A stretch of DNA of 64,000 nucleotides from Candidatus Omnitrophica bacterium UBA6249 (GCA_002441305.1 DJVT01000009.1:76839-140838), one strand, 5' to 3'; positions 189-48,183 are shown, counted from the first letter of the stretch. The notes: generated by a model not told the origin, from the sequence alone. Translations and numbers: made by a program.

Positions 189-998
189 ATGAAAATTAAT
201 AATAAAACAGAGATCTGTATTTCGATTGCTCAACATCCTAGTAATTTTGGTGTGACGGTACATAATACAGCCTATGAAAAAATGGGTTTAAATTTTATTT
301 ACAAACCCTTTAAAATAACAGATTTAAGAGGTGCTATCAGGGCTATTAGGGTATTAGGCATTCGTGGCTGTAGCGTAACTATGCCATTTAAGGAAAAAGT
401 TATTAAATATTTAGATAAGCTAGATGTAACTGCATCAGGTGTGGGGGCAGTGAATACAATAGTTAATAATAAAGGGAAGTTGATCGGTTATAACACCGAT
501 GTCTATGGGGCCTTTAGAGTGCTACAAGAATTACGGATTCCTACTAGTAATAGGATTTTAGTGTTGGGGGGAGGTGGTGTAGCAAAGGCAATTTCTTACG
601 CATTGTACAAATTAAATTTCCACAATGTTTTTATGTCCAATCGGACCATAAGAAAAGTTAAGACTATTGCGGAAAAGTTCGGTTATGAAGTGTTGCCTTG
701 GGGTAGACGTAATGATCTTGCGGCGGATATGCTTATAAATGCCACTTCTATTGGGATGGTTTCCCAGGAAAATATGATGCCGGTGTCGAATTCTGCATTA
801 AGAAAATATCATATGGTCATGGATGTTGTTGTTACACCTATACACAGTAGACTGATTAATAAAGCTAAGATGCTAAGAAAAAAGGTTATACCGGGTTATA
901 AAATGAGCTTATATCAGGCTGCAGCCCAATTTGAGTTATATTCTAGGAAAAAGGCTCCTTTGGCAATAATGCAGAAAGCGATATTATCTATGCTTTAG
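189..998 (+). CDS. shikimate 5-dehydrogenase family protein
   Basis: 269 aa. SVTMPFK, GAVNT, GYNTD and VLGGGGVAKA (Rossmann) motifs are typical of the AroE family. Confidence 0.7.
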   Translation: MKINNKTEICISIAQHPSNFGVTVHNTAYEKMGLNFIYKPFKITDLRGAIRAIRVLGIRGCSVTMPFKEKVIKYLDKLDVTASGVGAVNTIVNNKGKLIGYNTDVYGAFRVLQELRIPTSNRILVLGGGGVAKAISYALYKLNFHNVFMSNRTIRKVKTIAEKFGYEVLPWGRRNDLAADMLINATSIGMVSQENMMPVSNSALRKYHMVMDVVVTPIHSRLINKAKMLRKKVIPGYKMSLYQAAAQFELYSRKKAPLAIMQKAILSML

Positions 999-1056
999 AA
1001 TGTCGCTATGTTTTTTTGAGGACTAACTTGTACATTATTCCATTAAACTCCAATAC

Positions 1057-2196
1057 ATGAATATGAAGGTTTCATATACAGAAAGAAAAAATAGTATTAT
1101 CACAGATAAAGGAAACATAGAACGTCTTTACGAATTCAATAATTTTCCTGTATTTATAGGATGTACTGATAAAGATTATAAAGATGATTTATATGCTGAT
1201 ATGATATGGGATATTTGTGTTGATAGCGGCATGATACAATTACATAATCTGTTGTCTGCGGATATTGTCTATTCATCCTATCATTCTGAAGCAGTTGGGG
1301 GAATATGGAAAGAACACCATAATGAATTTAGCAGATTTATTTATAATTTTCATCCAAAGGATGTTCTGGAAATAGGCGGGTCGAATGGCAATCTGGCAAT
1401 TAATTATCTGGAGATACAGAATAATATTAGATCGTGGACTATTATTGAGCCGAATCCCTCCATTAAAAGTAATAAGAAAATAAAGGTTTTAAAAGGATTC
1501 TTCGGCAAGGATACTGTTGTTAATGGTATAGACACAATTGTTATTTCCCATGTACTAGAGCATATTTATGACCCCAATTCTTTCCTGCAAAACATTAATA
1601 GACATATAGAGATAGGTCAGTATCTTATTTTGAGCATCCCTAATTTGCATGTCTATTTACAAAAGAAATTTTCAAATTCTATTAATTTTGAACATACCTA
1701 TTTTTTAACAGAGTATTTCTGTAATTTTTTGTTACTAAAACATGGTTTTGAAATAGAGAAAAAAAGTTATTTTAGGGACCATAGTATTTTTCTTGCAGCC
1801 AAGAAGACAAATATAGAGCAAACACCCGAAACTGTTAATCATTATATAGAAAATAAAAGAATGTATTTAGGAATGGTTAATTATTATACTGAAGAAACTA
1901 AAAGGCTTAATTCGTTGATAGACCAATTTCCCGGGAAAATTTTTTTGTTTGGGGCGCATATTTTTTCTCAATTTTTAATTTATTTAGGACTTAACAGCAG
2001 AAAAATCAGCAACATAATAGATAACTCAGAATTAAAAAATGGCAAGCGCCTTTACGGTACGGAGCTTTATGTAAGAAAACCAGATGTTATAAATATGCAT
2101 GATTCGGTAGCTGTAATTCTAAAAGCTGGACAATATCAGAAGGAAGTTAAAAATCAATTATCTCTTTTAAAAAAAGATGTAGTTATTTGGGAGTAG
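1057..2196 (+). CDS. class I SAM-dependent methyltransferase with C-methyltransferase-type C-terminal domain
   Basis: LEIGGSNGNLA is a SAM motif. The C-terminal segment FLFGAHIFSQFL...DNSELKNGKRLYGTELYV resembles the C-terminal domain of sugar C-methyltransferases. There is no N-terminal Zn ribbon. Confidence 0.55.
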   Translation: MNMKVSYTERKNSIITDKGNIERLYEFNNFPVFIGCTDKDYKDDLYADMIWDICVDSGMIQLHNLLSADIVYSSYHSEAVGGIWKEHHNEFSRFIYNFHPKDVLEIGGSNGNLAINYLEIQNNIRSWTIIEPNPSIKSNKKIKVLKGFFGKDTVVNGIDTIVISHVLEHIYDPNSFLQNINRHIEIGQYLILSIPNLHVYLQKKFSNSINFEHTYFLTEYFCNFLLLKHGFEIEKKSYFRDHSIFLAAKKTNIEQTPETVNHYIENKRMYLGMVNYYTEETKRLNSLIDQFPGKIFLFGAHIFSQFLIYLGLNSRKISNIIDNSELKNGKRLYGTELYVRKPDVINMHDSVAVILKAGQYQKEVKNQLSLLKKDVVIWE

Positions 2197-4888: not shown

Positions 4889-6071
4889 TTCTCAAAATCT
4901 GGAACTCGCCGTTGATTTAGGTAAACACCCATGGGCGAATAATTTTCTATCTAAAGAACAGCTGGGAAAGGAAATCTTCTATCCTCTGCGAGTAATGTAT
5001 TGCCGCGATTGCCATACCGCGCAGCTTGATTATACCGTTCCCAAAGAGACAATGTTCGGGGATCATACGTATCTTTCAGGAATTACGAGGTCACTTAGCG
5101 AGCATTTTAGGGCTGTCTCCGAAGATGCGGATAACCGTTTCTTTAAGGAAGCCGATGGGAAGAGTGTTCTTGATATAGGTTCTAATGATGGAACTCAACT
5201 TAAGCATTATAAAGCCCTTGGCTATTACGTTTTGGGGGTGGAGTCTTCTAAGACGGTTGCCAAGATTGCCAATGATTCCGGGATAGACACACTTAACAAA
5301 TTCTTTAATTTCGAATTGGCAAGATCCTTAGGGAGAAAATTTGACATCATTAACGCTTCCGGCGTGTTTTTCCATTTGGAGGAACTGCATTCAGTAACTG
5401 AAGGGATAAGGGAGGCTTTAAAAGAAGATGGTGTATTTATCGTGCAGTTCCTGTATATGAAAAAGATTGTGGAAAATCTCGCTTTTGACCAGATCTATCA
5501 TGAGCATTTGCTTTATTACAATTTGAATACGATTGAAATATTATTGAACAAGCACGGATTGGCGATGTTTGATGCCTATATTTCCCCTATACACGGCGGC
5601 TCGGTAGTCGGATTCGTGTCTCATCGAGGCAAGAGGGGTGTTTCCCAGAGGTTGCGTGCTTTAAGAGAGGATGAAGAGAAGGATGGTGTGAATAGTTTAA
5701 AGGCTTATTTGGATTTTTCTGAACGAATGAAAAAGAAGAAAGAAGATAATCTTGCCTTTTTTGAAACAGCTAAGAAACAAGGGAAGCGGATATTCGGATT
5801 CGGGGCTCCGGTCAAAGGGAATACATTGCTGAATTATTTTGAGATAGGCACCGATCATATTGAATGTTTGGTGGAGAAGAATGAACTGCGCCGCGGTTTA
5901 TATTCTCCCGGCATGCATATCCCTATTGTTATCGAACGGGAATTAAAGGAAATGCCGGATATTTATTATGTTTTAGCGTGGAATTTCAGGAATGAAATAT
6001 TGGCTAATAATAAGAAGTTAATTGACAGGGGGGTTGAGTTTTATTTTCCGGTTAACCCTAAGGAGAATTAG
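4869..6071 (+). CDS. NDP-hexose C-methyltransferase family protein (Zn-ribbon + SAM MTase + C-terminal domain)
   Basis: The N-terminal CRIC...CRDC zinc ribbon, the DIGSNDG SAM motif and the C-terminal FGFGAPVKGNTLLNYF...SPGMHIPIV give the architecture of TylCIII-type sugar C-methyltransferases. Confidence 0.7.
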   Translation: MNCRICDSQNLELAVDLGKHPWANNFLSKEQLGKEIFYPLRVMYCRDCHTAQLDYTVPKETMFGDHTYLSGITRSLSEHFRAVSEDADNRFFKEADGKSVLDIGSNDGTQLKHYKALGYYVLGVESSKTVAKIANDSGIDTLNKFFNFELARSLGRKFDIINASGVFFHLEELHSVTEGIREALKEDGVFIVQFLYMKKIVENLAFDQIYHEHLLYYNLNTIEILLNKHGLAMFDAYISPIHGGSVVGFVSHRGKRGVSQRLRALREDEEKDGVNSLKAYLDFSERMKKKKEDNLAFFETAKKQGKRIFGFGAPVKGNTLLNYFEIGTDHIECLVEKNELRRGLYSPGMHIPIVIERELKEMPDIYYVLAWNFRNEILANNKKLIDRGVEFYFPVNPKEN

Positions 6072-35517: not shown

Positions 35518-36609
35518 ATGAGGGTGCTGGTTACGTATGCTTCGGCGGGAGCCGGGCACCGCAGGGTAGCCGAGGCTATATACGCGTATTTGAAAGAGAG
35601 CCGCGGGGAGGTCGATGCCGTATTGTCCGACATCCTGCCTTTTACCGGCAAGCTTTTCCGTTTTTCCTACAGCGCGGGCTATCCTTTTTTAATCAATCAT
35701 GCCCCCTGGCTGTGGGGGTTCTTTTTTTGGCTTACCGGTCCGAGCATTTTCCGCAGGCCTGTCCGCGCATTGGCCAGGATGGCGAATTATTTAGGGTGCA
35801 TGCGGTTTGCCGCTTACCTGCGCAGGGAAAGATTCGATTTTATCATCTCCACACATTTTTTGAACTCCGAGATCGCCGCGGGATTGAAGTCTAAAGGCAG
35901 GATATCTTCCAGGCTGATTACGGTGATTACCGATTTCGGCGTGCATCCTTTTTGGGTTTCCCCGGGGATCGATATTTACGCAGTTGCCTCAGAGGCGACA
36001 AGGGAGAAGCTTAAGGAGATGGGGGTTGCGGATAAACAGGCGATGGTTTCCGGTATCCCCTGCGGCGCGCCTTTTCTGAAAAAAGCAGACCGGGGCAGCC
36101 TGTGTTCGAAGCTTGGTATAGAACAGGGTAAATTTACGGTTTTGCTTATGACCGGTTCTTTCGGTTTCGGCCCGCTTGGGGAGATTGCTGAAGCTGTCAG
36201 CGAGGCAGCGCAGGTTCTGGTTGTCTGCGCAAGGAATAACAGGCTGCTGGAAAGAATGTCGAAGAAAAAGCCGGTGAATATAAAGGCGTTCGGTTTTGTC
36301 GGCAACATAGAGGAGCTTATGGGCGCAAGCGATATTATAATTACCAAGCCAGGAGGATCGAGCATTGCCGAGCTTCTTGCCATGGGGTTGTTTCCTGTTT
36401 TTATATCCGCCATACCCGGGCAGGAGCAGGAAAACGTAAAGGTGCTCTCTTCATGCGGCGTCGGCTATTCATGCGATAATGTCAGGAAGGTAAAGGATTT
36501 TGTTTCCAGGCTCAGGGACAACCCCGCAGAGCTTGAAAGATTGAGAGGTAATGTCTTGAAAATATCCAGGCCCTTTGCCTGCCGGGAGATATGCGATGCT
36601 ATACGCTAA
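35518..36609 (+). CDS. MGDG-synthase-like / processive diacylglycerol glycosyltransferase (GT28)
   Basis: The N-terminal ASAGAGHRRVAEAI and the C-terminal ITKPGGSSIAELLA are typical of the MGDG synthase/UgtP family. Confidence 0.7.
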   Translation: MRVLVTYASAGAGHRRVAEAIYAYLKESRGEVDAVLSDILPFTGKLFRFSYSAGYPFLINHAPWLWGFFFWLTGPSIFRRPVRALARMANYLGCMRFAAYLRRERFDFIISTHFLNSEIAAGLKSKGRISSRLITVITDFGVHPFWVSPGIDIYAVASEATREKLKEMGVADKQAMVSGIPCGAPFLKKADRGSLCSKLGIEQGKFTVLLMTGSFGFGPLGEIAEAVSEAAQVLVVCARNNRLLERMSKKKPVNIKAFGFVGNIEELMGASDIIITKPGGSSIAELLAMGLFPVFISAIPGQEQENVKVLSSCGVGYSCDNVRKVKDFVSRLRDNPAELERLRGNVLKISRPFACREICDAIR

Positions 36610-38455
36610 GGTTGTCCTAGGCCTGCCTGTAGACGGGCCGTTCGATTATCTTGTGCCGGCCGGCCTGGAGGGCAAGATGCGTATCGGCGCCAGGGTATGG
36701 GTGAATTTCCGCAACAAGAAAGAGGTCGCTTATGTCACCGGCCTTACCGCCAGGACGAAGATTAAAAATATAAAAGAGATTTCTTCTTTGATCGACATTA
36801 TCCCCGCCATCGATGATGGGATGATGTCTTTGTGTTCCGGCCTTGCGGAGTATTACTGCTGTTCTTTGGGTGAGGCGATCGAGACCGCGCTTCCTGAGGG
36901 GCTGAGGAAAGGGAAGGAGGTTTTGTCCCCGGTCGCTTCGGCTTCCGGCGGCAGCCTCGCAATGACAAAAACGAATGATCCGGCAGTGGCGGGGGGGATG
37001 CCGGTTTTTGTCCGGGGCCAGGACAGGATGCCTGTTTATTTGAAGTATATAAAGGAAGCTTTGGCCTCCGGGCGTTCGGCGATAATCCTGTTCAGCGATA
37101 TACGCGAGGCCGAAGAGGCCAGGGGGAGGATTGCCAGGGATTCGGGGGCGGAGGTGTTTTCGGTCTTCCGCAAACAGCCGGGGGAGCTTGAGATCTGGCA
37201 GTCGATCAGGGGCTTGTCCAGTTGCGTTGTCGTGGGCACCCGTTCCGGCATCTTTGCCCCGGTAAATAACCTGGGCCTTGTAATAATCGACCGTGAACAG
37301 GACCAGGTTTATAAACAGGAGCAGGCGCCCCATTACCACGCCAGGCAGGCGGCTTTGATGCGCAGCAGGATATGCGGGGCAAAACTTGTTTTAGGCGGGA
37401 CAGTCCCCTCTTTGGAAAGTTTTTTTCTCTTCCGCGAGGGCAAGCTTCAAGTCGAGGACTTGCCTTCGCAAAGCCTTTATCCTGCGGTGCAGGTTATCGA
37501 CAACAGGAGGCTGGCTTACGCGGACAGGAAATCCAAGCCCGTGATTTCGAAGTTCCTGTCGGATGCAATCTTTAAGGTCCTTTCGGATAAAGGGAAGGTG
37601 CTGGTATTTATCGAGCGCAAGGGGTTTGCCACGAGCGCGTTCTGTCATAATTGCGGGGCGCCTTTAAAATGCCCGCGATGCAGTATAAACCTGGTTTTTC
37701 ATTTCGACGAAGACAAGTTAAGGTGCCACCATTGCAATTTCAAGATGGATGTGCCGAAGATCTGCCCGAGCTGCAACTCCGGATATATTAAATATTCCGG
37801 ACTCGGCACGGAAAAACTGGAAAGCGAGCTTGCCAGGATGTTCCCTCAGGCGCGCATAGGGATAATAGGGGAAGGGGATGCCGAACTTGGCAGCGCGGAT
37901 ATTTTTGTTTCTACCAGCGTGGTGCTCAAACACCGTAATTTGAAGTTTGACCTGACGGGGGTAATCTCTATAGATAATTCCCTGAACCGGGTTGATTTCC
38001 GCGCGGCAGAGAAGGCATTTTCCCTGCTCACCGAACTGGCGGGCCGGAGCGCTAGGATGGTCATACAGAGCGCCAACGCCGGGCATTATTGTTTTAGGGC
38101 GCTGGTAAAGAATGACCAGGGGTTATTCCTGCAGGAGGAGCTGCGTCAGCGTAAACAGTTGAATTTTCCCCCGTATAAGCATATGATATTGCTTAAGCTC
38201 AGGTCGGCAAGCCTGAGCAAGGTAAAAGATGCCTCGGCGGGCCTTTTCGAGAAGCTGGGCAGCATTAAAAGCGCGAGCGTAAAATTGCTTTCGCTCAATC
38301 CGTCTCAGCCGGCCAAGTTAAGGGGGAACTTTTATTACCAGATACTGATGCGCGCCTCGCGGGCGGAGAAGGCGGCGCGTTTTTTAAGGCCGTATCTGAA
38401 GGACGGCAGTTTTTCGGGCGTAATCGTGACAGTGGATGTGGATCCGGTGATATGA
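36596..38455 (+). CDS. priA: primosomal protein N' (PriA) with degenerate helicase motifs
   Basis: The N-terminal VLGLPVDGPFDYLVP..G.RVWVNF and the Cys4 x2 zinc region (CHNCGAPLKCPRC...CHHCNF...CPSCNS) are PriA-like. However motif I reads GQDRM and motif II reads DREQ. The ATG at 36596 is preferred over the TTG at 36575. Confidence 0.8.
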   Translation: MLYAKVVLGLPVDGPFDYLVPAGLEGKMRIGARVWVNFRNKKEVAYVTGLTARTKIKNIKEISSLIDIIPAIDDGMMSLCSGLAEYYCCSLGEAIETALPEGLRKGKEVLSPVASASGGSLAMTKTNDPAVAGGMPVFVRGQDRMPVYLKYIKEALASGRSAIILFSDIREAEEARGRIARDSGAEVFSVFRKQPGELEIWQSIRGLSSCVVVGTRSGIFAPVNNLGLVIIDREQDQVYKQEQAPHYHARQAALMRSRICGAKLVLGGTVPSLESFFLFREGKLQVEDLPSQSLYPAVQVIDNRRLAYADRKSKPVISKFLSDAIFKVLSDKGKVLVFIERKGFATSAFCHNCGAPLKCPRCSINLVFHFDEDKLRCHHCNFKMDVPKICPSCNSGYIKYSGLGTEKLESELARMFPQARIGIIGEGDAELGSADIFVSTSVVLKHRNLKFDLTGVISIDNSLNRVDFRAAEKAFSLLTELAGRSARMVIQSANAGHYCFRALVKNDQGLFLQEELRQRKQLNFPPYKHMILLKLRSASLSKVKDASAGLFEKLGSIKSASVKLLSLNPSQPAKLRGNFYYQILMRASRAEKAARFLRPYLKDGSFSGVIVTVDVDPVI

Positions 38456-39423
38456 AGATAATATTTTTTGGAAGCGCACATTTTGCAGTTCCTTCCCTTA
38501 AGGCCTTGATCAAAAGCGGCCATGAGGTATCCTGCGTGGTTACCCAGCCGGATAAGAAAAAAGGCAGGCATATGCATTTATCCGGCACGGACGTAAAGAC
38601 TACCGCGGAGAAAGCGGGCCTTGAGATTTTTCAGCCGGGGGATATCAAAAGTAAGGAGAGCGTGGAATTCCTCAGGGGCTTTAAGGCGGATATTTTTGTT
38701 ATCGTGGCTTACGGCCAAATCCTTTCCCAGGAGGTGCTGGATATACCTAAAATCATGCCGCTTAATATACATGCTTCGCTGCTGCCGCGTTACCGCGGGG
38801 CCGCCCCGATAAATTGGGCGATCATCAATGCGGATAAGAAGACAGGGGTAAGCATCATGTATGTGAGCCTGAAGATGGATTCCGGGCCGGTAATCATGCA
38901 GAAGGAGATCGGCATAGATAAGCAGGATACGGCGGTAAGCCTGGAGGAGAAGCTGCGCCTTTTAGGGGCGGAGCTGCTTATGGATGCGCTCAAGGCGATA
39001 GAGGAAAGGGACTACAGGCTTATCGAGCAGGATGAAGAGAAGGTGATTATTGCCCCTAAGCTCAAGAAAGAGGACGGGTTGATCGACTGGAGCGCGCATG
39101 CTCCGGATATCCATAACCAGGTCAGGGGCGTACTGCCGTGGCCGGGGGCCTTTACCGTTTACCGCGGCAAGATGCTTAAAATTTTTAATACGGAGACAAT
39201 AGCGGCGTTCCCCGGCCATAAGCCTGTCCCGGGAGAGATTGTCAGGGCGGATAAGCATGAGATAGTGGTTGCCTGCGGAAGAGGTTTTTTGAGCATACGG
39301 GAACTGCAGATTGAAGCGGGCAGGCGTATGTGCGCGCATTCTTTTGTCGTAGGCCACAGGCTTAAGGCCGGTGAGGTCTTGGGGAGTTCTCATATTCGTC
39401 ATTCCCGCAATGACACAAAATAG
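38452..39423 (+). CDS. fmt: methionyl-tRNA formyltransferase
   Basis: MKIIFFGSAHFAVPSL and HASLLPRYRGAAPINWAI are characteristic. ATGA overlap with priA. Confidence 0.9.
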   Translation: MKIIFFGSAHFAVPSLKALIKSGHEVSCVVTQPDKKKGRHMHLSGTDVKTTAEKAGLEIFQPGDIKSKESVEFLRGFKADIFVIVAYGQILSQEVLDIPKIMPLNIHASLLPRYRGAAPINWAIINADKKTGVSIMYVSLKMDSGPVIMQKEIGIDKQDTAVSLEEKLRLLGAELLMDALKAIEERDYRLIEQDEEKVIIAPKLKKEDGLIDWSAHAPDIHNQVRGVLPWPGAFTVYRGKMLKIFNTETIAAFPGHKPVPGEIVRADKHEIVVACGRGFLSIRELQIEAGRRMCAHSFVVGHRLKAGEVLGSSHIRHSRNDTK

Positions 39424-39451
39424 TTGCAAGTTAGGGCAGTTCTGTTATAAT
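39424..39451 (+). promoter_or_regulatory. sigma70-type promoter, leaderless geometry (galT-like operon)
   Basis: TTGCAA (39424-39429), 16-nt spacer, TATAAT (39446-39451), then 8 nt to the ATG at 39460. No RBS. Confidence 0.7.
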
Positions 39452-39459
39452 TAAAATCT

Positions 39460-40482
39460 ATGCCAGAGTTAAGGAAAGATCCGATTATAGGTAGATGGGT
39501 AATTATTGCCACTGAGCGCGCGCGCAGGCCCGACCAGTTTTCCGGCCATAAGGAGCACGACGAACAGGGGGAGTGCCCTTTTTGCGAAGGGAGAGAATCC
39601 AATACGCCCCCTGAGATTTATGCCATTCGCCCGCGTAACCCCGCCCGCAATCAGCCGGGATGGGATTTGCGGGTAGTCCCGAGCAAATTTCCTTTTTTAA
39701 AGATAGAGGGTGACCTTGACCGCCGCGGAAACGGCATCTATGACGTGATGAACGGCCTCGGAGCCCATGAGGTAGTGATCGAGACCAACCAGCATATCGC
39801 CAATATGGCGGATTTGAGCGAGGAGCAGATTACCAGGGTGCTCAATTGTTACTCCGACAGGATAACCGACCTGGAAAAGGATCTCAGGCTTAAATATGTG
39901 CTGGTGTTTAAGAATTACGGTAAAGGCTCCGGAGGGGGAGCGATAAGGCATTCCCGCTCGCAGTTGATCGCCACTCCCGTCAACCCCAAGCGGGTAAAAG
40001 AGGAGCTCGCCGGGGCAAGGCGTTATTATGAATACCATGAGCGTTGTGTTTTCTGCGACTTGATCAAACAGGAGCTTGAGCAGAAGGAGCGCGTGATCGC
40101 CGAGTTCGACGGCTTTGTGGCGGTTGCGCCGTTTGCGGCGAGATTTCCCTTCGAGACCTGGATTTTGCCGAAGAACCACTGCTGCGATTATACTTGTATG
40201 GACCCGGATTCGAGGAGGCATCTTGCCCGGGTGCTCAAGAGCGTGCTTCTTAAGCTGAAGGTGGGGTTGAACGATCCGGATTACAATTACGTTATCCATA
40301 CCGCACCGTTCCGCAGGCAGAAGACCGGCTACTGGAAGACAATCGACCACGATTACCATTGGCATATCGAGATTATGCCGCGCCTGACAAGGGTGGCGGG
40401 TTTTGAATGGGGGACGGGTTTCTATATCTGTCCGCTTCCTCCTGAGGAGACAGCGAAGTTTTTAAGAGAGGTGGAGATTTAA
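39460..40482 (+). CDS. GalT-family (HIT superfamily, galactose-1-P uridylyltransferase/ADP-glucose phosphorylase-like) protein, atypical active site
   Basis: CPFCEG, GAHEVVIE and YHWHIEIMP are conserved, but the HPHxQ motif is replaced by HSRSQ. Confidence 0.75.
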   Translation: MPELRKDPIIGRWVIIATERARRPDQFSGHKEHDEQGECPFCEGRESNTPPEIYAIRPRNPARNQPGWDLRVVPSKFPFLKIEGDLDRRGNGIYDVMNGLGAHEVVIETNQHIANMADLSEEQITRVLNCYSDRITDLEKDLRLKYVLVFKNYGKGSGGGAIRHSRSQLIATPVNPKRVKEELAGARRYYEYHERCVFCDLIKQELEQKERVIAEFDGFVAVAPFAARFPFETWILPKNHCCDYTCMDPDSRRHLARVLKSVLLKLKVGLNDPDYNYVIHTAPFRRQKTGYWKTIDHDYHWHIEIMPRLTRVAGFEWGTGFYICPLPPEETAKFLREVEI

Positions 40483-40483
40483 G

Positions 40484-41485
40484 ATGCCAGAGCTGAGGAG
40501 AGATCCGGTTGTGGGCAGATGGGTGATTGTGGATACAGACCATCCTAACAAGCCGGAGGATTTCGAATACGAGCGTTATGTGCCGGCAGGCGGGCTGTGC
40601 CCGTTTTGTTACGGCAACGAGTTTATGACTCCTCCGGAGATAAGCTGTTTCCGCGATCCTTCCACTGCGCCGAACAGCCCCGGCTGGCAGGTGCGCGTGG
40701 TGGCGAACAAGTTTCCCGCATTGCAGATAGAAGGTGATCTTGACCGCAGGGGCATAGGCATCTACGACATGTCAAACGGCGTGGGCGCACATGAAGTGCT
40801 CATCGAGACCCCTTACCATAATAAGGATATTCCCGAGCTCCTGCCGCATGAGATAGAAAGTTACCTGAGGATGTGCTGTGTGCGCGCCGCAGACCTGAAG
40901 AGGGACAGCCGTTTTAAATACATTATGATCTTCCGTAATTACGGGTCGGCCGCCGGAGCATCGCTGGAGCATCCGCATACCCAGCTTATCGCGCTGCCCA
41001 TGGTCCCGAAGAATGCGCTGGAGGAGATACACGGAGCGCAGAATTACTATAACTACCGGGAGCGCTGTATTTACTGCGACATAATCCGCCAGGAGCTGCA
41101 GGATAAGGTCAGGCTGATTACGGAGAACAAGAGCTTCATTTCTTTTTGCCCGTTTGTCTCAAGGTTCCCGTTCGAGATTATGATTATGCCCAGGCAGCAC
41201 AGCGGGTATTTTTGCCATATGAACGACGGCCAGCTTTCCGACCTGGCGGCGATATTGAGAGAAACGCTGGCGAAATTAAAAAAAGTATTTGAAAATTTGT
41301 CATATAATTATATAATTCATTCTGCGCCTATTAACGGTGATTCTGACGTAGAATATTATCATTGGCATCTTGAAATCATGCCTAAGCTGACGCAAGTAGC
41401 AGGTTTTGAATGGGGGACTGGTTTCTACCTTGATCAAACCTCGCCTGAATTAGCCGCGCAGTATTTAAAAGCCGTAAAAGAATAA
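40484..41485 (+). CDS. galT: GalT-family nucleotidyltransferase (canonical HPHTQ active site)
   Basis: CPFCYG, GAHEVLIE, EHPHTQLIALP and YHWHLEIMP are all present. The start is 1 nt after the stop of its paralogue. Confidence 0.8.
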   Translation: MPELRRDPVVGRWVIVDTDHPNKPEDFEYERYVPAGGLCPFCYGNEFMTPPEISCFRDPSTAPNSPGWQVRVVANKFPALQIEGDLDRRGIGIYDMSNGVGAHEVLIETPYHNKDIPELLPHEIESYLRMCCVRAADLKRDSRFKYIMIFRNYGSAAGASLEHPHTQLIALPMVPKNALEEIHGAQNYYNYRERCIYCDIIRQELQDKVRLITENKSFISFCPFVSRFPFEIMIMPRQHSGYFCHMNDGQLSDLAAILRETLAKLKKVFENLSYNYIIHSAPINGDSDVEYYHWHLEIMPKLTQVAGFEWGTGFYLDQTSPELAAQYLKAVKE

Positions 41486-41552: not shown

Positions 41553-42605
41553 ATGGCTGTTAAGGTTGGTATAAATGGTTTTGGAAGGATAGGCCGCTTG
41601 GTGGCCCGGGCGATTATGGAAAAGAATTCCAAGGATATCGAGCTGGTGGCAATCAATGATTTGACCGACGCCAAGAGCAACGCTTATCTTTTTAAATACG
41701 ATTCCGTGCACGGGCGTTTCGACGGAGAGGTCAAGGCGACGAGCGAGGATGTGATCTCGGTCAACGGCAAGGATATCAAGGTTTTGAGCAAGAGGGACCC
41801 CGCCGAACTCCCCTGGAAGGACCTGGGCGTTGAGATAGTCGTGGAATCGACCGGTTTGTTCACAATCAAGAAAGACGGCATCAATAAAAAAGGCAAGCAG
41901 GTAAAAGGCGCGGAGAACCATATAACCAAGGGCGGCGCCAAGAAAGTTATCATTTCCGCCCCTGCCCAGGATGAGGATATAACTATTGTTATGGGCGTGA
42001 ACGAGTCGAAATACGACCCGAAGAACCATAATGTGATCTCCAACGCTTCCTGCACTACCAACTGCCTTGCTCCTATTTCGAAGGTAATGAATGATAAATG
42101 GGGCATTGTCAAAGGGCTGATGACTACGATACATTCTTATACCAATGACCAGAAGGTGCAGGATATGGCGCATTCGGATTTGCGCCGCGCCCGCGCCGCA
42201 GCGGTTTCCATGATCCCTACTTCTACGGGGGCAGCCAAGGCAATATCCCTGGTTATCCCGGAGTTAAAAGGGAAGCTGGACGGGTTTGCCATACGCGTGC
42301 CCACGCCGAATGTCTCGGTAGTCGATCTGACCGTTACTCTTGGCAAAAAGGCGAGCGTAGAAGAGTTGAACGCCGCTTTCAAGGAGGCTTCCGAAGGGGC
42401 AATGAAGGGTATTCTCGGGTATACCGAGGACCCGGTGGTATCGGTTGATTTCAACCATTGCAAGTTAAGCTCCATACTCGATGCAAAAAGCACCAAGGTT
42501 ATCCAGGATGATTTTGTCAAAGTGCTCTCCTGGTATGACAATGAATGGGGTTATTCCAACCGCGTAGTTGACCTGTGTGAGTATATCGTAAATAAAGGGT
42601 TATAA
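41553..42605 (+). CDS. gap: glyceraldehyde-3-phosphate dehydrogenase (type I)
   Basis: INGFGRIGR and [12 protein letters not shown] are diagnostic. RBS aaggagga. Confidence 0.95.
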
Positions 42606-42625: not shown

Positions 42626-43813
42626 ATGGCAAAACTGACCTTGAAGGATGTCGATTTAAACGGTAAGACGGTGCTGGTGCGCGCGGATTTCAATGTCCCG
42701 CAGGACGCCAGTTTGAATATTACGGATGATACCCGTATCAGGGCGACTATCCCGACCTTGAAGTATATCCTTGAGCATGGCGCAAAGAAGCTTGTGCTGA
42801 TGAGCCATTTGGGCAGGCCGGACGGAAAGGCCGTGCCTAAATACAGCCTTAAGCAGGTGGCGATCCGCCTGAAGGAGCTTCTGGGTACGGATGTCCTTTT
42901 CCTCGGCGATTGCGTGGGGGAGGGTATCAAGCCGGATATCGATAAATCGAACGAGAAGGTGGTTTTGCTGGAGAACCTGCGTTACCATTCCGAAGAGGAG
43001 GGTAATGATGCGGATTTTGCCAAACAGCTGTCCTCTCTGGCGGATGTTTTTGTCAATGACGCTTTCGGTACCGCCCACCGGGCGCACGCTTCTACCGAAG
43101 GAGTAACGCATTATCTAAAGTCATGCGCCGGGCTGCTCCTGGAGAAGGAGATAAAATACCTGGGTGATTCTCTTAAGAATCCCGAGAAGCCTTTCGTGGT
43201 GATCCTGGGAGGGGCAAAGGTATCGGATAAGATAGGGGTTATCGAAAACCTCCTGCCTAAGTGCGAAGCGATAATCGTGGGCGGGGGCATGGCCTATACT
43301 TTTCTCAAGGCGCAGGGAAAACAAATCGGCAATTCCAAACTGGAGAAGGACAAACTGGACCTGGCTAAATCCATATTGGATAAAGCCAAGGAATTAAACA
43401 AAGAGATCCTGCTTCCTGTGGATAATGTAGTGGTCGACAATATAGACACTGCGGCAAAGAGCGAGGTCTGCGGGGAAGACGTCCCTGAAGGTAAGATTGC
43501 AGTGGATATCGGGCCGAAGACGGTCAAGCTGTTTGAGGACAAGCTAAAGACGGCGAAGACAATCGTTTGGAACGGGCCGATGGGTATATTCGAGATGGAT
43601 GCCTTCAGTAACGGCACTCGGGAATTGGCCGGTTATATCGCCGCCCTGCCAGGCTGCATTTCGATTATCGGAGGAGGAGATACCGCTGCGGCGGTGGCTA
43701 AGTTTAAACTGGAAGACAGGATGACGCATATATCAACCGGCGGAGGCGCGAGCCTGGAGTTCCTGGAAGGCAAGGAACTGCCGGGAATTAAGGCGCTTAC
43801 AGATAAGGAATAA
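42626..43813 (+). CDS. pgk: phosphoglycerate kinase
   Basis: [15 protein letters not shown] and [13 protein letters not shown] are diagnostic. Confidence 0.95.
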
Positions 43814-43814
43814 G

Positions 43815-44582
43815 ATGAGAAAAACGATTATCGCGGGAAACTGGAAGATGTACAAGACAATTAAAGAGGGGCAGGTTTTGGTTGCCGCTTTGAAAAGAGA
43901 ATTGTATAAGATAGAGAATACGGATATTGTGGTATGCCCGCCTTTTACCGCGTTGGCTTACCTGGCCGACGACTTGAAGGAGAGCAATATTTCCGTAGGG
44001 GCCCAGGATATCTATTGGCAGGAGGAGGGGGCTTTTACCGGAGAGGTTTCCCCGGCGATGCTCAAGGATGCGGGGTGCCAGTATGTGATTATCGGGCATT
44101 CCGAGCGCAGGCAGTATTTCGGGGAGACTAACGAGACGGTGAACAAGAAGATCAAGGCTACTCTCAAGGCCGGGCTTTTTCCGATCATGTGCGTAGGAGA
44201 AAACCTGCAGGAGAGAGAGGCCGGCAAGGCATTCGAGGTGATCGAGGACCATGTCGCCAACGGGCTGTCTGAAATAAGCGCAGAGGAAGTATTGAAGATG
44301 GTAGTTGCTTATGAGCCGGTTTGGGCGATAGGAACAGGCAAGACCGCCACTCCCGAACAGGCCCAGGAGGTTCACGCCTTCATCCGCGGGCTGCTCAAGA
44401 AAAAATATGGGCAGGAGGTTGCCGGGAACATCAGGATCCAGTACGGCGGAAGCGTCAAGCCGGAGAATATCACGGAGCTGATGAATAAATCGGATGTGGA
44501 CGGCGCCTTGGTCGGCGGGGCAAGTTTGAAAGCGGATTCTTTCAGCGCCATAGTTTCCAGGGCAAGCGAGGTTACGAAATGA
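43815..44582 (+). CDS. tpiA: triose-phosphate isomerase
   Basis: [14 protein letters not shown] and [11 protein letters not shown] are diagnostic. Confidence 0.95.
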
Positions 44583-44959
44583 TGACTTTTATAATCATAA
44601 TTCATGTGATTGCCTGCGCGGTATTAATTACTTTGGTTTTGATACAGCGCGGCAGAGGCGGTGGGCTGGTTGAGAGTTTCGCGGGGGTGGAGTCGATGTT
44701 CGGGACAAAGACGAGCAGCTTCCTTACGCGTACCACCACGATTATGTCGATAGTTTTCTTTTTTACTTGTTTGAGCCTTGCGGTGCTTTCCGTCAAGCAG
44801 AGTAAGTCATTGATGCGCGCGGTGAAGACTGAAACAAAACAGCAGTCCGTCAAACAGGAGCCTTCCAAGGCAGATGCCGTTAAAACGGAGACGGTAAAAT
44901 CGGAACCGGCAAAAGCAGATGCGGGACAAGCCCCTGTTGCACAAGAGAAGAGTAAGTAA
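44579..44959 (+). CDS. secG: preprotein translocase subunit SecG with Lys/Glu/Thr-rich C-terminal extension
   Basis: LIQRGRGGGL...FG...FLTR is the SecG core, in the gap-pgk-tpiA-secG order. The C-terminal ~45 aa contain two VKTET...EP(S/A)KADA repeats. Confidence 0.8.
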   Translation: MMTFIIIIHVIACAVLITLVLIQRGRGGGLVESFAGVESMFGTKTSSFLTRTTTIMSIVFFFTCLSLAVLSVKQSKSLMRAVKTETKQQSVKQEPSKADAVKTETVKSEPAKADAGQAPVAQEKSK

Positions 44960-44982: not shown

Positions 44983-45013
44983 AAGGCTACCAGATTACCT
45001 GGTAGCCTTTCTT
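44983..45013 (+). terminator. rho-independent terminator after secG
   Basis: An 11-bp stem, AAGGCTACCAG (44983-44993) pairing with CTGGTAGCCTT (44999-45009), with a 5-nt loop, followed by TTTCTT. Confidence 0.65.
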
Positions 45014-46360: not shown

Positions 46361-46960
46361 ATGATGGAAGTTCTTAGACCTTATATACTTAGCTTTATCC
46401 CGCTTTTTGTCGCGGTTGACTCCATAGGGAACATCCCGATTTTTATCTCTATGGTAGAAGGGCACTCAAAGCCGCAGAGGCGGAAGATCATTTTTGACGC
46501 TATTGCTACCGCCATGGTCGTGGCGGTAATTTTTATGCTTATAGGCAAATGGATTTTTTCTCTTTTGGGGATAACTATATATGATTTCCAGATAGCAGGA
46601 GGCATATTGTTGTTTGTTATCTCCGTGCGCCTGCTGCTCCCGGGGGCGCAAAAGAACGCGCTCACCGGTTCGCGCGACAAAGATATGGGGGTGTTCCCCC
46701 TGGGGACTCCCCTGATTACCGGCCCGGCGGTGCTTGCTACCACCTTGATGATGATGAACAGTTTCGGTTTTTTCGTGACCCTGGTTTCTTTGGTGTTGAA
46801 TATGTTCCTGGTCTGGGTTACCCTGGTTAAGACCGATACGATCATGAGAGTGATCGGCCATAGCGGGGTTAGGGCGTTTTCCAAGATAATGTACATATTA
46901 CTGGCGGCGATTTCTGTAATGATGATCAGGATAGGAATAACGGGAGTATTGCTAAAATGA
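46361..46960 (+). CDS. MarC family (UPF0056) integral membrane protein
   Basis: 199 aa with 6 TM segments. FIPLFVAVDSIGNIPIF and PLGTPLITGPAVLAT are MarC-like blocks. Confidence 0.75.
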   Translation: MMEVLRPYILSFIPLFVAVDSIGNIPIFISMVEGHSKPQRRKIIFDAIATAMVVAVIFMLIGKWIFSLLGITIYDFQIAGGILLFVISVRLLLPGAQKNALTGSRDKDMGVFPLGTPLITGPAVLATTLMMMNSFGFFVTLVSLVLNMFLVWVTLVKTDTIMRVIGHSGVRAFSKIMYILLAAISVMMIRIGITGVLLK

Positions 46961-48183
46961 TGCGTAAAGTTCTTACTTTTATCATGGCCGGAGGAAAAGG
47001 CGAGCGCCTTCTTCCCCTGACCAAAGACCGCACCAAACCGGCGGTTCCTTTCGGGGGGATTTACCGGATTATAGATTTTACTTTAAGCAATTGTATCAAC
47101 TCCGGGCTGCGCAAGATATACATACTCACGCAGTATAAATCCGCTTCCCTGCAGAGACATATCCGCCTGGGGTGGAATTTTCTTCCTTCAGAGCTCGGGC
47201 AATTTATCGAGCTGCTTCCGGCTCAGCAGAGGATAGGAGACTCATGGTATCTGGGCACGGCGGACGCAATTTTCCAGAATCTCTATACCCTGGAGATGGA
47301 CAAGCCGGATGAGGTGCTTATTCTTGCCGGGGATCATATCTATAAGATGAATTACTATTCTATGATAGACCTTCACCGCGAGAAGAATGCCGATCTTACG
47401 GTAGGGGTGGTGGAGGTAGAAAAAAGCAAATCCAAGCACCTGGGGGTGGTTGAAGTCGATGCAGAAGGGAGAGTTACCGGCTTTTACGAAAAGCCCTCTG
47501 ACCCCAAGACTATTCCCGGGAAACCGAACAGCATATACGGTTCGATGGGCATATACGTATTTAACCACCCGGTATTGATGCGGGAGCTTCTCGATGACTC
47601 CAGGGACCCGAAATCATCGCATGACTTCGGCAAGAATATAATCCCCCAGATGATCAAGAAGGGGATGAAGGTCGTGGCGTATAATTTCAGGAACAAGGAG
47701 AATGATGAAGAGGAGTACTGGCGGGATATCGGTACGATCGACGCTTATTACGAGGCAAACATGGAGTTGATACAGGTCAATCCCGTATTCAACCTTTATG
47801 ACCAGGAGTGGCCGGTGAGAACCTTCCAGGAGCAGTATCCCCCGGTAAAAACCGTGCATTCGGGCGACCGTGAGGCAGGCAGGGTGGGGTTGATGCTGGA
47901 TTCCATAGTTTCCGAAGGCTGCGTAGTCTCCGGAGGCAGGGTTCAGCGTTCGATACTTTCTCCCAATGTCAGGATAAACAGTTTCTCCGAGGTGTATGAT
48001 TCTATCCTTATGGAAGGGGTCAATGTAGGCAGGTACGCCAAAATCAAACGGGCGATCATAGACAAGGACGTGAGTATCCCGCAGGGGATGATTATAGGTT
48101 TTAACCTGGAAGAGGACAAGAAAAGGTTTTTCGTGAGCAACTCGGGCATTGTAGTGGTGGCAAAGCGTACAGAAATTAAATAG
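46957..48183 (+). CDS. glgC: glucose-1-phosphate adenylyltransferase
   Basis: MAGGKGERLLPLTKDRTKPAVPFGGIYRIIDFTLSNCINSG is diagnostic. ATGA overlap with the marC-like gene. Confidence 0.9.
   Translation: MMRKVLTFIMAGGKGERLLPLTKDRTKPAVPFGGIYRIIDFTLSNCINSGLRKIYILTQYKSASLQRHIRLGWNFLPSELGQFIELLPAQQRIGDSWYLGTADAIFQNLYTLEMDKPDEVLILAGDHIYKMNYYSMIDLHREKNADLTVGVVEVEKSKSKHLGVVEVDAEGRVTGFYEKPSDPKTIPGKPNSIYGSMGIYVFNHPVLMRELLDDSRDPKSSHDFGKNIIPQMIKKGMKVVAYNFRNKENDEEEYWRDIGTIDAYYEANMELIQVNPVFNLYDQEWPVRTFQEQYPPVKTVHSGDREAGRVGLMLDSIVSEGCVVSGGRVQRSILSPNVRINSFSEVYDSILMEGVNVGRYAKIKRAIIDKDVSIPQGMIIGFNLEEDKKRFFVSNSGIVVVAKRTEIK

Follow-up and report, generated by a model that had tools for sequence, protein, structure and literature searches.

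A tandem pair of GalT-family paralogues in Omnitrophota as a probable single-site heterodimer

We analysed a 64,000-nucleotide stretch of DNA from Candidatus Omnitrophica bacterium UBA6249 (GCA_002441305.1 DJVT01000009.1:76839-140838; hereafter the window), in which two adjacent open reading frames (ORFs), A and B, encode galactose-1-phosphate uridylyltransferase (GalT)/HIT-family paralogues (Table 1). Their comparison with homologues suggests that A and B probably constitute an obligate heterodimeric HIT-family nucleotidyltransferase with a single active site, which within class I GalT would fall in the At5g18200-like (ADP-glucose-phosphorylase) branch. The Arg pair that acts in trans on the partner's pocket is retained in A, which has lost residues of the cis half, and B is its mirror image. 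The pair is ancient and conserved. The physical heterodimer, its single-site activity and its substrate are what we infer from these sequence comparisons.

Complementary losses in the composite active site

A and B share 47% identity over their full length (BLASTP E = 2e-117), and a protein from Omnitrophica metagenome-assembled genomes (MAGs) matches the product of ORF A at 100% identity. Both proteins scored above the gathering cut-offs of PF01087 (GalP_UDP_transf, 22.1 bits) and PF02744 (GalP_UDP_tr_C, 29.2 bits), with 33.1 and 47.3 bits for A and 40.5 and 59.5 bits for B. The closest solved relative of both is Arabidopsis At5g18200 (PDB 1Z84; 38-42% identity), which matched A over residues 2-339 (E = 1.5e-69) and B over residues 2-331 (E = 3.7e-65), whereas E. 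coli GalT matched at ~25% identity (E = 1e-19 for A and 1e-28 for B). Altogether, 7,885 relatives were found among 1.84 billion cluster representatives. The ORFs lie, on the plus strand, exactly where an earlier sequence-only reading of this DNA had placed them, and the GalT/HIT framework motifs that it had listed (MPELRxDPxxGRWVI, CPFC, GAHEVxIET, YHWHxEIMP and FEWGTGFY) are present in both proteins.

We then examined the catalytic motif. In class I GalT, the second His of HPH is the nucleophile, and the metal ligands are Cys-Cys-His-His (PMC5081055). The equivalent motif reads HPHGQ in E. coli GalT, HSHSQ in At5g18200 and HSGSQ in the H186G mutant (2H39). An HxHxQ motif with a nucleophilic second His is present in B and absent from A, in which Arg166 (codon CGC at 39955-39957) aligns on the nucleophile (E. 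coli H166, At5g18200 H186) and His164 on the metal-ligand His. The alignments to At5g18200 and E. coli GalT thus bear out the earlier observation that the upstream copy has Arg in place of the nucleophile and keeps the metal ligands. The first metal site (E. coli C52, C55, H115 and H164) has all its four ligands invariant in 78 A copies, and in 70 B copies the Cys positions are kept in 69/70 and the His positions in 70/70. A second Cys2His2 set in the C-terminal half, which we take to be the equivalent of At5g18200 C216, C219, H255 and H310, is invariant at all four positions in the 78 A and 70 B copies. The earlier reading had also proposed to check the Arg variant in orthologues, and the A clade, sampled at one genome per species, has Arg at the nucleophile position in 73/78 copies. 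Of A's 120 nearest homologues, which share at least 73% identity with it, 115 carry Arg, three Lys and one Thr, and one lacks the first His. The A genes usually encode this Arg by CGY, which differs by a single step from CAY for His. In the B clade, the nucleophile His and the Gln are each present in 70/70 copies. As judged from these alignments, A is a family member by descent and fold, and not a catalyst of the HxHxQ mechanism.

In human and E. coli GalT, the hexose-1-phosphate pocket is built from residues of both chains, with Lys334 to Gln346 contributed by one chain and Gln188 and Asn173 by the other (PMC5081055). The opposite chain contributes Arg48 (E. coli R28), and the phosphates of UDP-glucose are contacted by R28 and R31 (PMC5081055). 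We traced these and other pocket positions in an alignment of 78 A copies, 70 B copies, 135 outgroup representatives, At5g18200 and E. coli GalT. As a result, the trans positions R28 and R31 were found to be Arg in 76/78 and 71/78 A copies, respectively, with Lys in five copies at the latter, whereas the 70 B copies carry His (31), Asn (11), Arg (5), Lys (4) and other residues at the first position, and Lys (37), Ala (7), Leu (7), Ser (5) and others at the second. Arg accounts for 7% of the B clade at position 20 and for 1% at position 23. The cis positions behave in the opposite manner. The ribose-contacting N77 is replaced by Ser in 74/78 A copies and remains Asn in 69/70 B copies, the D78 position is Ile in 56/78 A copies and Lys or Arg in 69/70 B copies, and the phosphate-contacting S161 is Gly in 56/78 A copies and Ser or Thr in 70/70 B copies. 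In the A protein of the window, Ser75 replaces the ribose-binding Asn and Gly160 the phosphate-binding Ser, in addition to Arg166 at the nucleophile position.

We also performed an unbiased scan of the 69 columns whose conservation reaches 80% or more in the His-bearing outgroups. Only three of them were lost in A (the equivalents of N77, H166 and At5g18200 N334) and only four in B (the equivalents of R28, R31, and At5g18200 A241 and N334). The single-copy metagenomic relatives carry the complete signature RRNK[S/T]HHQ in 76/78 loci. In a site-wise entropy analysis, A was tighter than B in the N-terminal arm (residues 1-30) and the C-terminal half (residues 229-324), whereas B was tighter than A in residues 31-107 and in the catalytic loop (residues 153-168). 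The regions in which A is tighter take in the trans Arg pair and the segment that provides the partner-site sugar contacts in GalT. This regional constraint is the pattern that a single-site heterodimer model predicts. Read most simply, the complementary losses suggest that neither homodimer would have a full site, and that A:B would have exactly one, with the cis half from B and the trans half from A.

The following scheme is consistent with these observations. The ancestral protein would have been a homodimer whose two active sites were identical, both chains contributing to each. The gene would have been duplicated in tandem no later than the base of the sampled Omnitrophota, after which the two copies would have lost complementary halves of the pocket. 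B would supply the cis half, comprising the nucleotide-binding Asn, the Ser/Thr, the metal-ligand His, the nucleophile His165 and the Gln, and A would supply the trans half, comprising the Arg pair R20/R23 together with the constrained N-terminal arm and C-terminal half. In A:B, the live site would combine B cis with A trans, and the second site (A cis with B trans) would be catalytically dead. Chemistry at the live site would proceed by ping-pong transfer through nucleotidyl-His165, the likeliest reaction being ADP-glucose + phosphate -> ADP + glucose-1-phosphate, or the reverse, which would link glucan/ADP-glucose metabolism to the apparently co-transcribed gap-pgk-tpi genes. A one-to-one output of the subunits would be favoured by the 1-nt stop-start junction and the internal ribosome-binding site. 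The comparative data, through the complementary losses, favour the earlier suggestion that A is a pseudoenzyme partner in a heterodimer, and further indicate that B is also incomplete, having lost the trans Arg pair.

Conservation of the pair and the role of A

We next considered the distribution of the pair. A scan at one genome per species yielded 80 loci, of which 79 have an A-type copy and come from Omnitrophota or from mislabelled Planctomycetes-Verrucomicrobia-Chlamydiae (PVC) MAGs. The sequence-only reading had called for a survey of co-occurrence; a second copy follows A in 74/74 loci with at least 600 nt of flank after A, and A always stands alongside an HxHxQ partner. All Omnitrophota loci with enough flank have the order A>B>gap, including those in which the farther genes differ. 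The eightieth locus (L080, a Chlamydiota-labelled MAG) has a single canonical copy in the order glgC>glgA>GalT-like>GH57. In a neighbour-joining (NJ) tree including the 135 outgroup representatives, A and B are each monophyletic. The distance from the A stop to the B start lies within -10 to +10 nt in 57/72 loci, with modes at -1, 0 and +1. In the window, the A stop TAA (40480-40482) is separated from the B ATG (40484) by a 1-nt spacer, and AGAGAGGT is kept at the A-B junction in many loci.

The ratio of nonsynonymous to synonymous substitution rates (dN/dS) was 0.057 in A and 0.059 in B, values that denote strong purifying selection on the two genes. In 64/69 genomes, A is the better conserved of the two. 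The possibility that A is a decaying pseudogene was ruled out by its intact ORF, its dN/dS and its greater conservation relative to B. A chance or assembly duplication was likewise ruled out by the level of identity between A and B, by their separate monophyletic clades, and by the presence of the pair in all of these loci from independent assemblies.

The order in which the cis residues were lost can be followed in several lineages. Three His-retaining A copies (L065, L070 and L078) lie at or near the base of the A clade, already have Ser in place of the ribose-binding Asn, and have B partners from which the Arg pair is missing. Four other A copies (L051, L053, L071 and L074) keep the Asn and have Arg in place of the nucleophile His. 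These mixed Asn/His states indicate that the order in which the cis residues decayed varied among lineages, which is what one would expect if the second site had been disabled beforehand. The NJ topology, which is distance-based, suggests at least three separate replacements of His by Arg in A. Among the cluster representatives, about 16 of the top 142 full-length ones lack the nucleophile and carry R, Y, S, V, I, C or L, indicating that its loss is recurrent in the subfamily. Some of them are deeper A-type partners (L084 and L087), and three stand alone on their contigs (L085, L086 and L088).

More divergent pairs show the same cis/trans split. Two of them, L084 and L087, are tandem; L084 shares the priA-fmt-pair-gap synteny of the window and has an A-type motif that has degenerated further, and L087 has a different downstream context. 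In P0121 (L089 6001-7800; GCA_003558915.1, PWOP01000182.1), A' and B' are fused in a single protein of 599 aa, followed by gap-pgk-tpi-secG. Its A' unit keeps the arm (RAKRP) and the C-terminal half and has lost CPFC and the whole of HxHxQ, and its B' unit lacks the arm and keeps EHPHTQ. A candidate for a second kind of tandem pair (L171) turned out to be one gene split by a stop or frameshift. As a separate observation, a euglenid (Eutreptiella) transcript, P0160, carries two His-bearing GalT-like units in one chain.

These lineages bear on the alternative, raised in the sequence-only reading, that A is a true enzyme with an altered mechanism, in which Arg166 would stabilise direct, non-covalent nucleotidyl or phosphoryl transfer or hydrolysis. 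Such a role would account for the presence of Arg specifically in most orthologues, for its apparent gain more than once in the NJ tree, and for the strong purifying selection on A. We nevertheless regard it as very unlikely, because the ribose-binding Asn and the phosphate-binding Ser are gone from A as well, and because B no longer provides the trans Arg pair to the A pocket. Moreover, other lineages have Lys, Ile or Ser at the nucleophile position, or retain the arm and C-terminal half but neither the motif nor the CPFC knuckle, and the His-retaining A copies had already exchanged Asn for Ser. The non-covalent alternative is thus disfavoured, also by the decay of the N-terminal half in one lineage.

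Several points weigh against the single-site heterodimer. The A pocket is not simply decaying: Q168 is kept in 77/78 copies and N152 and G158 in 78/78, the metal ligands are invariant, and Arg166 is conserved, so that A may do more than donate its arm; such retention exceeds the needs of a scaffold. Three solitary relatives without the nucleophile (L085, L086 and L088; Table 1) have no second copy on their contig and are the chief caveat to a purely partner-dependent role; such proteins evidently can be maintained with no partner gene next to them, although one may lie elsewhere in those genomes. The A'-B' fusion is known from one MAG contig and forms a single-member cluster. The trans position and importance of R28/R31 would carry over by analogy from GalT of E. 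coli and humans. For A, an AlphaFold2 model based on a 44-sequence alignment was uninformative, with a mean predicted local distance difference test (pLDDT) score of 55 and residues 1-113 below 50; the fold of A is settled because of the sequence match to 1Z84. Finally, the family-invariant Asn of the YINP motif (At5g18200 N334) is replaced in both A and B of the derived clade, whereas it is kept in 93% of the outgroups, in 76/78 single-copy loci and in both copies of the basal pairs. Its loss from both subunits means that the specificity may differ from ADP-glucose.

The solitary relatives and the conserved pocket of A would also fit a situation in which the two proteins act separately, B as an ordinary homodimeric enzyme, and A as a homodimeric non-catalytic sensor, regulator or scaffold that merely shares the operon; the retention of Q168, N152, G158, both metal sites and Arg166 suggests that the A pocket binds a ligand. 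This is unlikely in our judgement, since B lacks the Arg pair that single-copy members keep, and the constraint on A peaks in the very elements that are contributed to a partner. The consistent co-occurrence, the tight junctions and the natural fusion also argue against separate action.

A further reading builds on the heterodimer and is tentative; we consider it less likely than not. The dead pocket of A might serve as a new ligand-sensing or second-substrate site, and the heterodimer may have a substrate or role unlike those of characterised GalT-family enzymes. After B had stopped providing the Arg pair, A would have repeatedly fixed Arg at the nucleophile position, and Arg166, together with the sugar-phosphate-contacting Asn152 and Gln168 and the metal knuckle, would form a phosphate or hexose-phosphate pocket that could allosterically regulate the single live site. 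A different substrate or role is suggested by the loss of the family Asn from both subunits and by the invariable gap linkage; examples would be ADP-glucose turnover coupled to glycolytic flux, or a cycle with GlgC, ATP + Pi (phosphate) -> ADP + PPi (pyrophosphate). Such a pocket would not have a universal role, as the fusion P0121 and L084 have lost most of that half.

Substrate, expression and genomic neighbourhood

Both proteins are named galactose-1-phosphate uridylyltransferase in the databases and pass TIGR00209 (galT_1) by a narrow margin (106.8 bits for A and 126.4 for B; cut-off 102.1), as would be the case for ordinary Leloir isozymes. We consider this annotation extremely improbable. 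Scores for the Leloir GalT equivalog NF008724 are far below the cut-off (126.6 and 135.1 bits vs 448), and the Leloir assignment appears weak at the equivalog level; in addition, A has no nucleophile, both proteins are closer to At5g18200 than to E. coli GalT, and their relatives sit with glgA, GH57 and glgC. The gene calls between a point ~10 kb upstream of A and the 3' end of the window include no galK-type or galE-type product, the sole epimerase-family genes seen lying more than 20 kb upstream of the pair in a polysaccharide cluster. The gene calls and the TIGR02091 match agree with the context described by the sequence-only reading, namely fmt upstream of A, the gap operon (gap-pgk-tpi-secG) downstream of B, glgC farther on, and no adjacent galK or galE.

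McCoy et al. reportedly found in 2006 that At5g18200 has no GalT activity and instead transfers AMP from ADP-glucose to phosphate through adenylyl-His186 in a ping-pong reaction. The hint of ADP-glucose or glycogen chemistry in the earlier reading is corroborated by this closest relative, by the neighbours of the single-copy genes and by natural fusions. In the metagenomic loci, GlgA adjoins the single-copy GalT-like gene in 22/80 cases, and other neighbours are GH57, a GH57 4-alpha-glucanotransferase, NTP_transf_4 (a sugar nucleotidyltransferase) and glgC. One fusion (P0151, 814 aa) joins starch/glycogen synthase GlgA to a GalT-like unit and represents a 19-member cluster with one member from Coprothermobacterota, and two others (P0168 and P0183, about 860-875 aa) join GH57 to a GalT-like unit; all of these GlgA and GH57 fusions carry canonical His-bearing units. 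The enzyme At5g18200 is called ADP-glucose phosphorylase, and like the class I GalTs it is a homodimer in which the active sites lie where the two subunits meet (bioRxiv 10.64898/2026.09.13.751320). GalT is not mentioned in a review of alpha-glucan enzymes (PMC11046441).

For the A-B pair, ADP-glucose and phosphate as substrates would be a reasoned guess. The glgC gene, which lies 5.5 kb downstream of the pair in the window, indicates from its equivalog-level match that the organism can make ADP-glucose. Of gap-pgk-tpi, gap is the tight partner of the pair in Omnitrophota and pgk-tpi are often linked as well, from which we infer that the A-B enzyme feeds, or is balanced with, lower glycolysis. 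As an additional observation, a deep-branching Omnitrophota MAG (L078, JABMQJ010000012.1) has a GlgA-like gene in the same string (A>B>gap>...>GlgA>pgk); no other paired locus showed such a direct link to glycogen synthase.

We also inspected the expression signals. The -10 hexamer of the promoter-like element upstream of A ends 8 nt before the ATG, and A has no Shine-Dalgarno sequence. The geometry TATAAT-N7-8-ATG recurs in about 35 orthologous loci, whose upstream sequences were read by eye; in more distant loci its place is taken by a Shine-Dalgarno sequence or by a -10 hexamer lying farther from the start codon. The leaderless-type promoter proposed earlier thus stands at the level of this conserved sequence architecture. 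The pgk, tpi and secG genes are probably co-transcribed with the pair, and the strong hairpin 3' of secG is likely the end of the transcription unit. Separately, the region's highest-scoring promoter-like match (11/12), TTGAAA-16-TATAAT, falls within the 3' end of B at 41289-41316. Lying ~240 nt upstream of gap, it may provide gap-pgk-tpi with an internal promoter of their own.

Table 1. Coordinates of the pair, its motifs, its signals and its neighbours in the window, and of three solitary relatives
Feature	Position	Strand	Details
Promoter-like TTGCAA-16 nt-TATAAT with TG extension	39424-39451	+	10/12 matches
ORF A, GalT/ADP-glucose-phosphorylase-fold paralogue without nucleophile	39460-40482	+	340 aa; proposed non-catalytic, trans-donating subunit
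A arm, R20-A-R-R23	39517-39528	+	aligns with E. coli R28/R31 and At5g18200 R41/R44; trans Arg pair kept
A motif RHSRSQ (R163-H164-S165-R166-S167-Q168)	39946-39963	+	metal ligand H164 and Q168 kept; R166 for nucleophile His
Replacement of YINP Asn in A, Cys324	40429-40431	+	At5g18200 N334 equivalent
Shine-Dalgarno-like GAGAGGTGGAG for B	40466-40476	+	inside 3' end of A
ORF B, GalT/ADP-glucose-phosphorylase-fold paralogue, HxHxQ intact	40484-41485	+	333 aa; proposed catalytic subunit
B arm, H20-P-N-K23	40541-40552	+	degenerate; trans Arg pair gone
B motif EHPHTQ (E162-H163-P164-H165-T166-Q167)	40967-40984	+	metal ligand H163, nucleophile H165 and Q167 kept
Replacement of YINP Asn in B, Asp317	41432-41434	+	At5g18200 N334 equivalent; Val in most relatives
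gap, type I glyceraldehyde-3-phosphate dehydrogenase	41553-42605	+	TIGR01534 463 bits vs cut-off 367
pgk, tpi, secG	42626-44959	+	gene calls
Terminator-like hairpin	44983-45009	+	11-bp stem and T-rich tail; 3' of secG
glgC, glucose-1-phosphate adenylyltransferase	46957-48183	+	TIGR02091 equivalog 480.6 bits vs cut-off 424.9
L085, solitary relative (own locus)	369-1409		Ile at nucleophile position; neighbour acetate kinase
L086, solitary relative (own locus)	5001-6026		Val at nucleophile position; neighbours type III pantothenate kinase and Usp
L088, solitary relative (own locus)	921-1949		Leu at nucleophile position; neighbours PAS/GAF sensor, response regulator and glgC-like gene

The wider window has several features of its own. 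Upstream of the pair, a GT28 gene (diglucosyl-diacylglycerol-synthase-like), priA and fmt (35518-39423) are syntenic in most Omnitrophota loci, and long-range gene order in Omnitrophota is apparently unusually stable. The G+C content is 0.32-0.39 over positions 1-24000, 0.43 in the 24-26 kb block and 0.47-0.54 from ~26 kb onward. The low-GC block (1-24000) is a surface-polysaccharide cluster of the O-antigen type, containing two Wzy_C genes, glycosyltransferases (GT9, WecG and Bac_transf), DegT-type aminotransferases, epimerases and a split transketolase; its composition suggests a horizontally exchanged cassette. GC skew is above 0 in all 2-kb blocks, and nearly all long ORFs lie on the plus strand. 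Scans for tRNA genes and Rfam families gave no hit at threshold in the 64-kb window.

Comparison with known systems

No description of an enzyme/pseudoenzyme arrangement in the GalT/HIT family was found in the literature searched, and the A-B pair most likely represents a known logic, that of the enzyme/pseudoenzyme heterodimer, which would apparently be new for the GalT family. A textbook symmetric homodimer has apparently been turned into an asymmetric pair in a large part of the phylum, providing a natural experiment on how shared-site homodimers become obligate heterodimers, why a non-catalytic subunit can be more constrained than the catalytic one, and what the exchange of His for Arg at the nucleophile position is selected for. 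Metabolic reconstructions of Omnitrophota would be misled by the current annotation (galactose-1-phosphate uridylyltransferase or DUF4931), since these genes do not imply a Leloir pathway. The adjacency or fusion of bacterial ADP-glucose-phosphorylase-like enzymes with glgA, GH57 and glgC is documented in many lineages, and A and B offer a defined protein pair for testing such enzymes.

Among characterised proteins, At5g18200 (1Z84, 1ZWJ and 2H39) resembles the pair in its two-half-barrel HIT fold family, in both Cys2His2 sets, and in HxHxQ, which is kept in B. It is a homodimer with two equivalent sites, each subunit having both R41/R44 and the nucleophile, whereas these elements are split between the paralogues in the window, and its N334 is replaced in both of them. 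The class I GalTs (E. coli 1HXP/1HXQ, human 5IN3) likewise have a composite two-chain site and the same Pfam domain pair as A and B. They differ in being homodimers, in their Leloir context, and in their sugar-binding motif KFxVGYE, where the window proteins have GFEWGTG. Each of their subunits provides the trans Arg pair, which A retains and B does not.

A parallel outside the family is provided by the trypanosomatid prozymes (deoxyhypusine synthase DHSc/DHSp and AdoMetDC/prozyme), in which an impaired enzyme and a dead paralogue form an active hetero-oligomer (PMC3663545). They resemble the arrangement proposed for A and B in combining a dead paralogue with a paralogue that is impaired alone. 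Unlike the window pair, they are eukaryotic, belong to an unrelated fold and pathway, and are encoded by non-adjacent genes; their activation has been measured (3000-fold), whereas that of the A-B pair is a prediction from sequence. A counterpart of the division of labour proposed here within the family is the A'-B' fusion P0121, in which the same complementary losses occur in one chain, whereas the units of the window are separate, tightly coupled genes.

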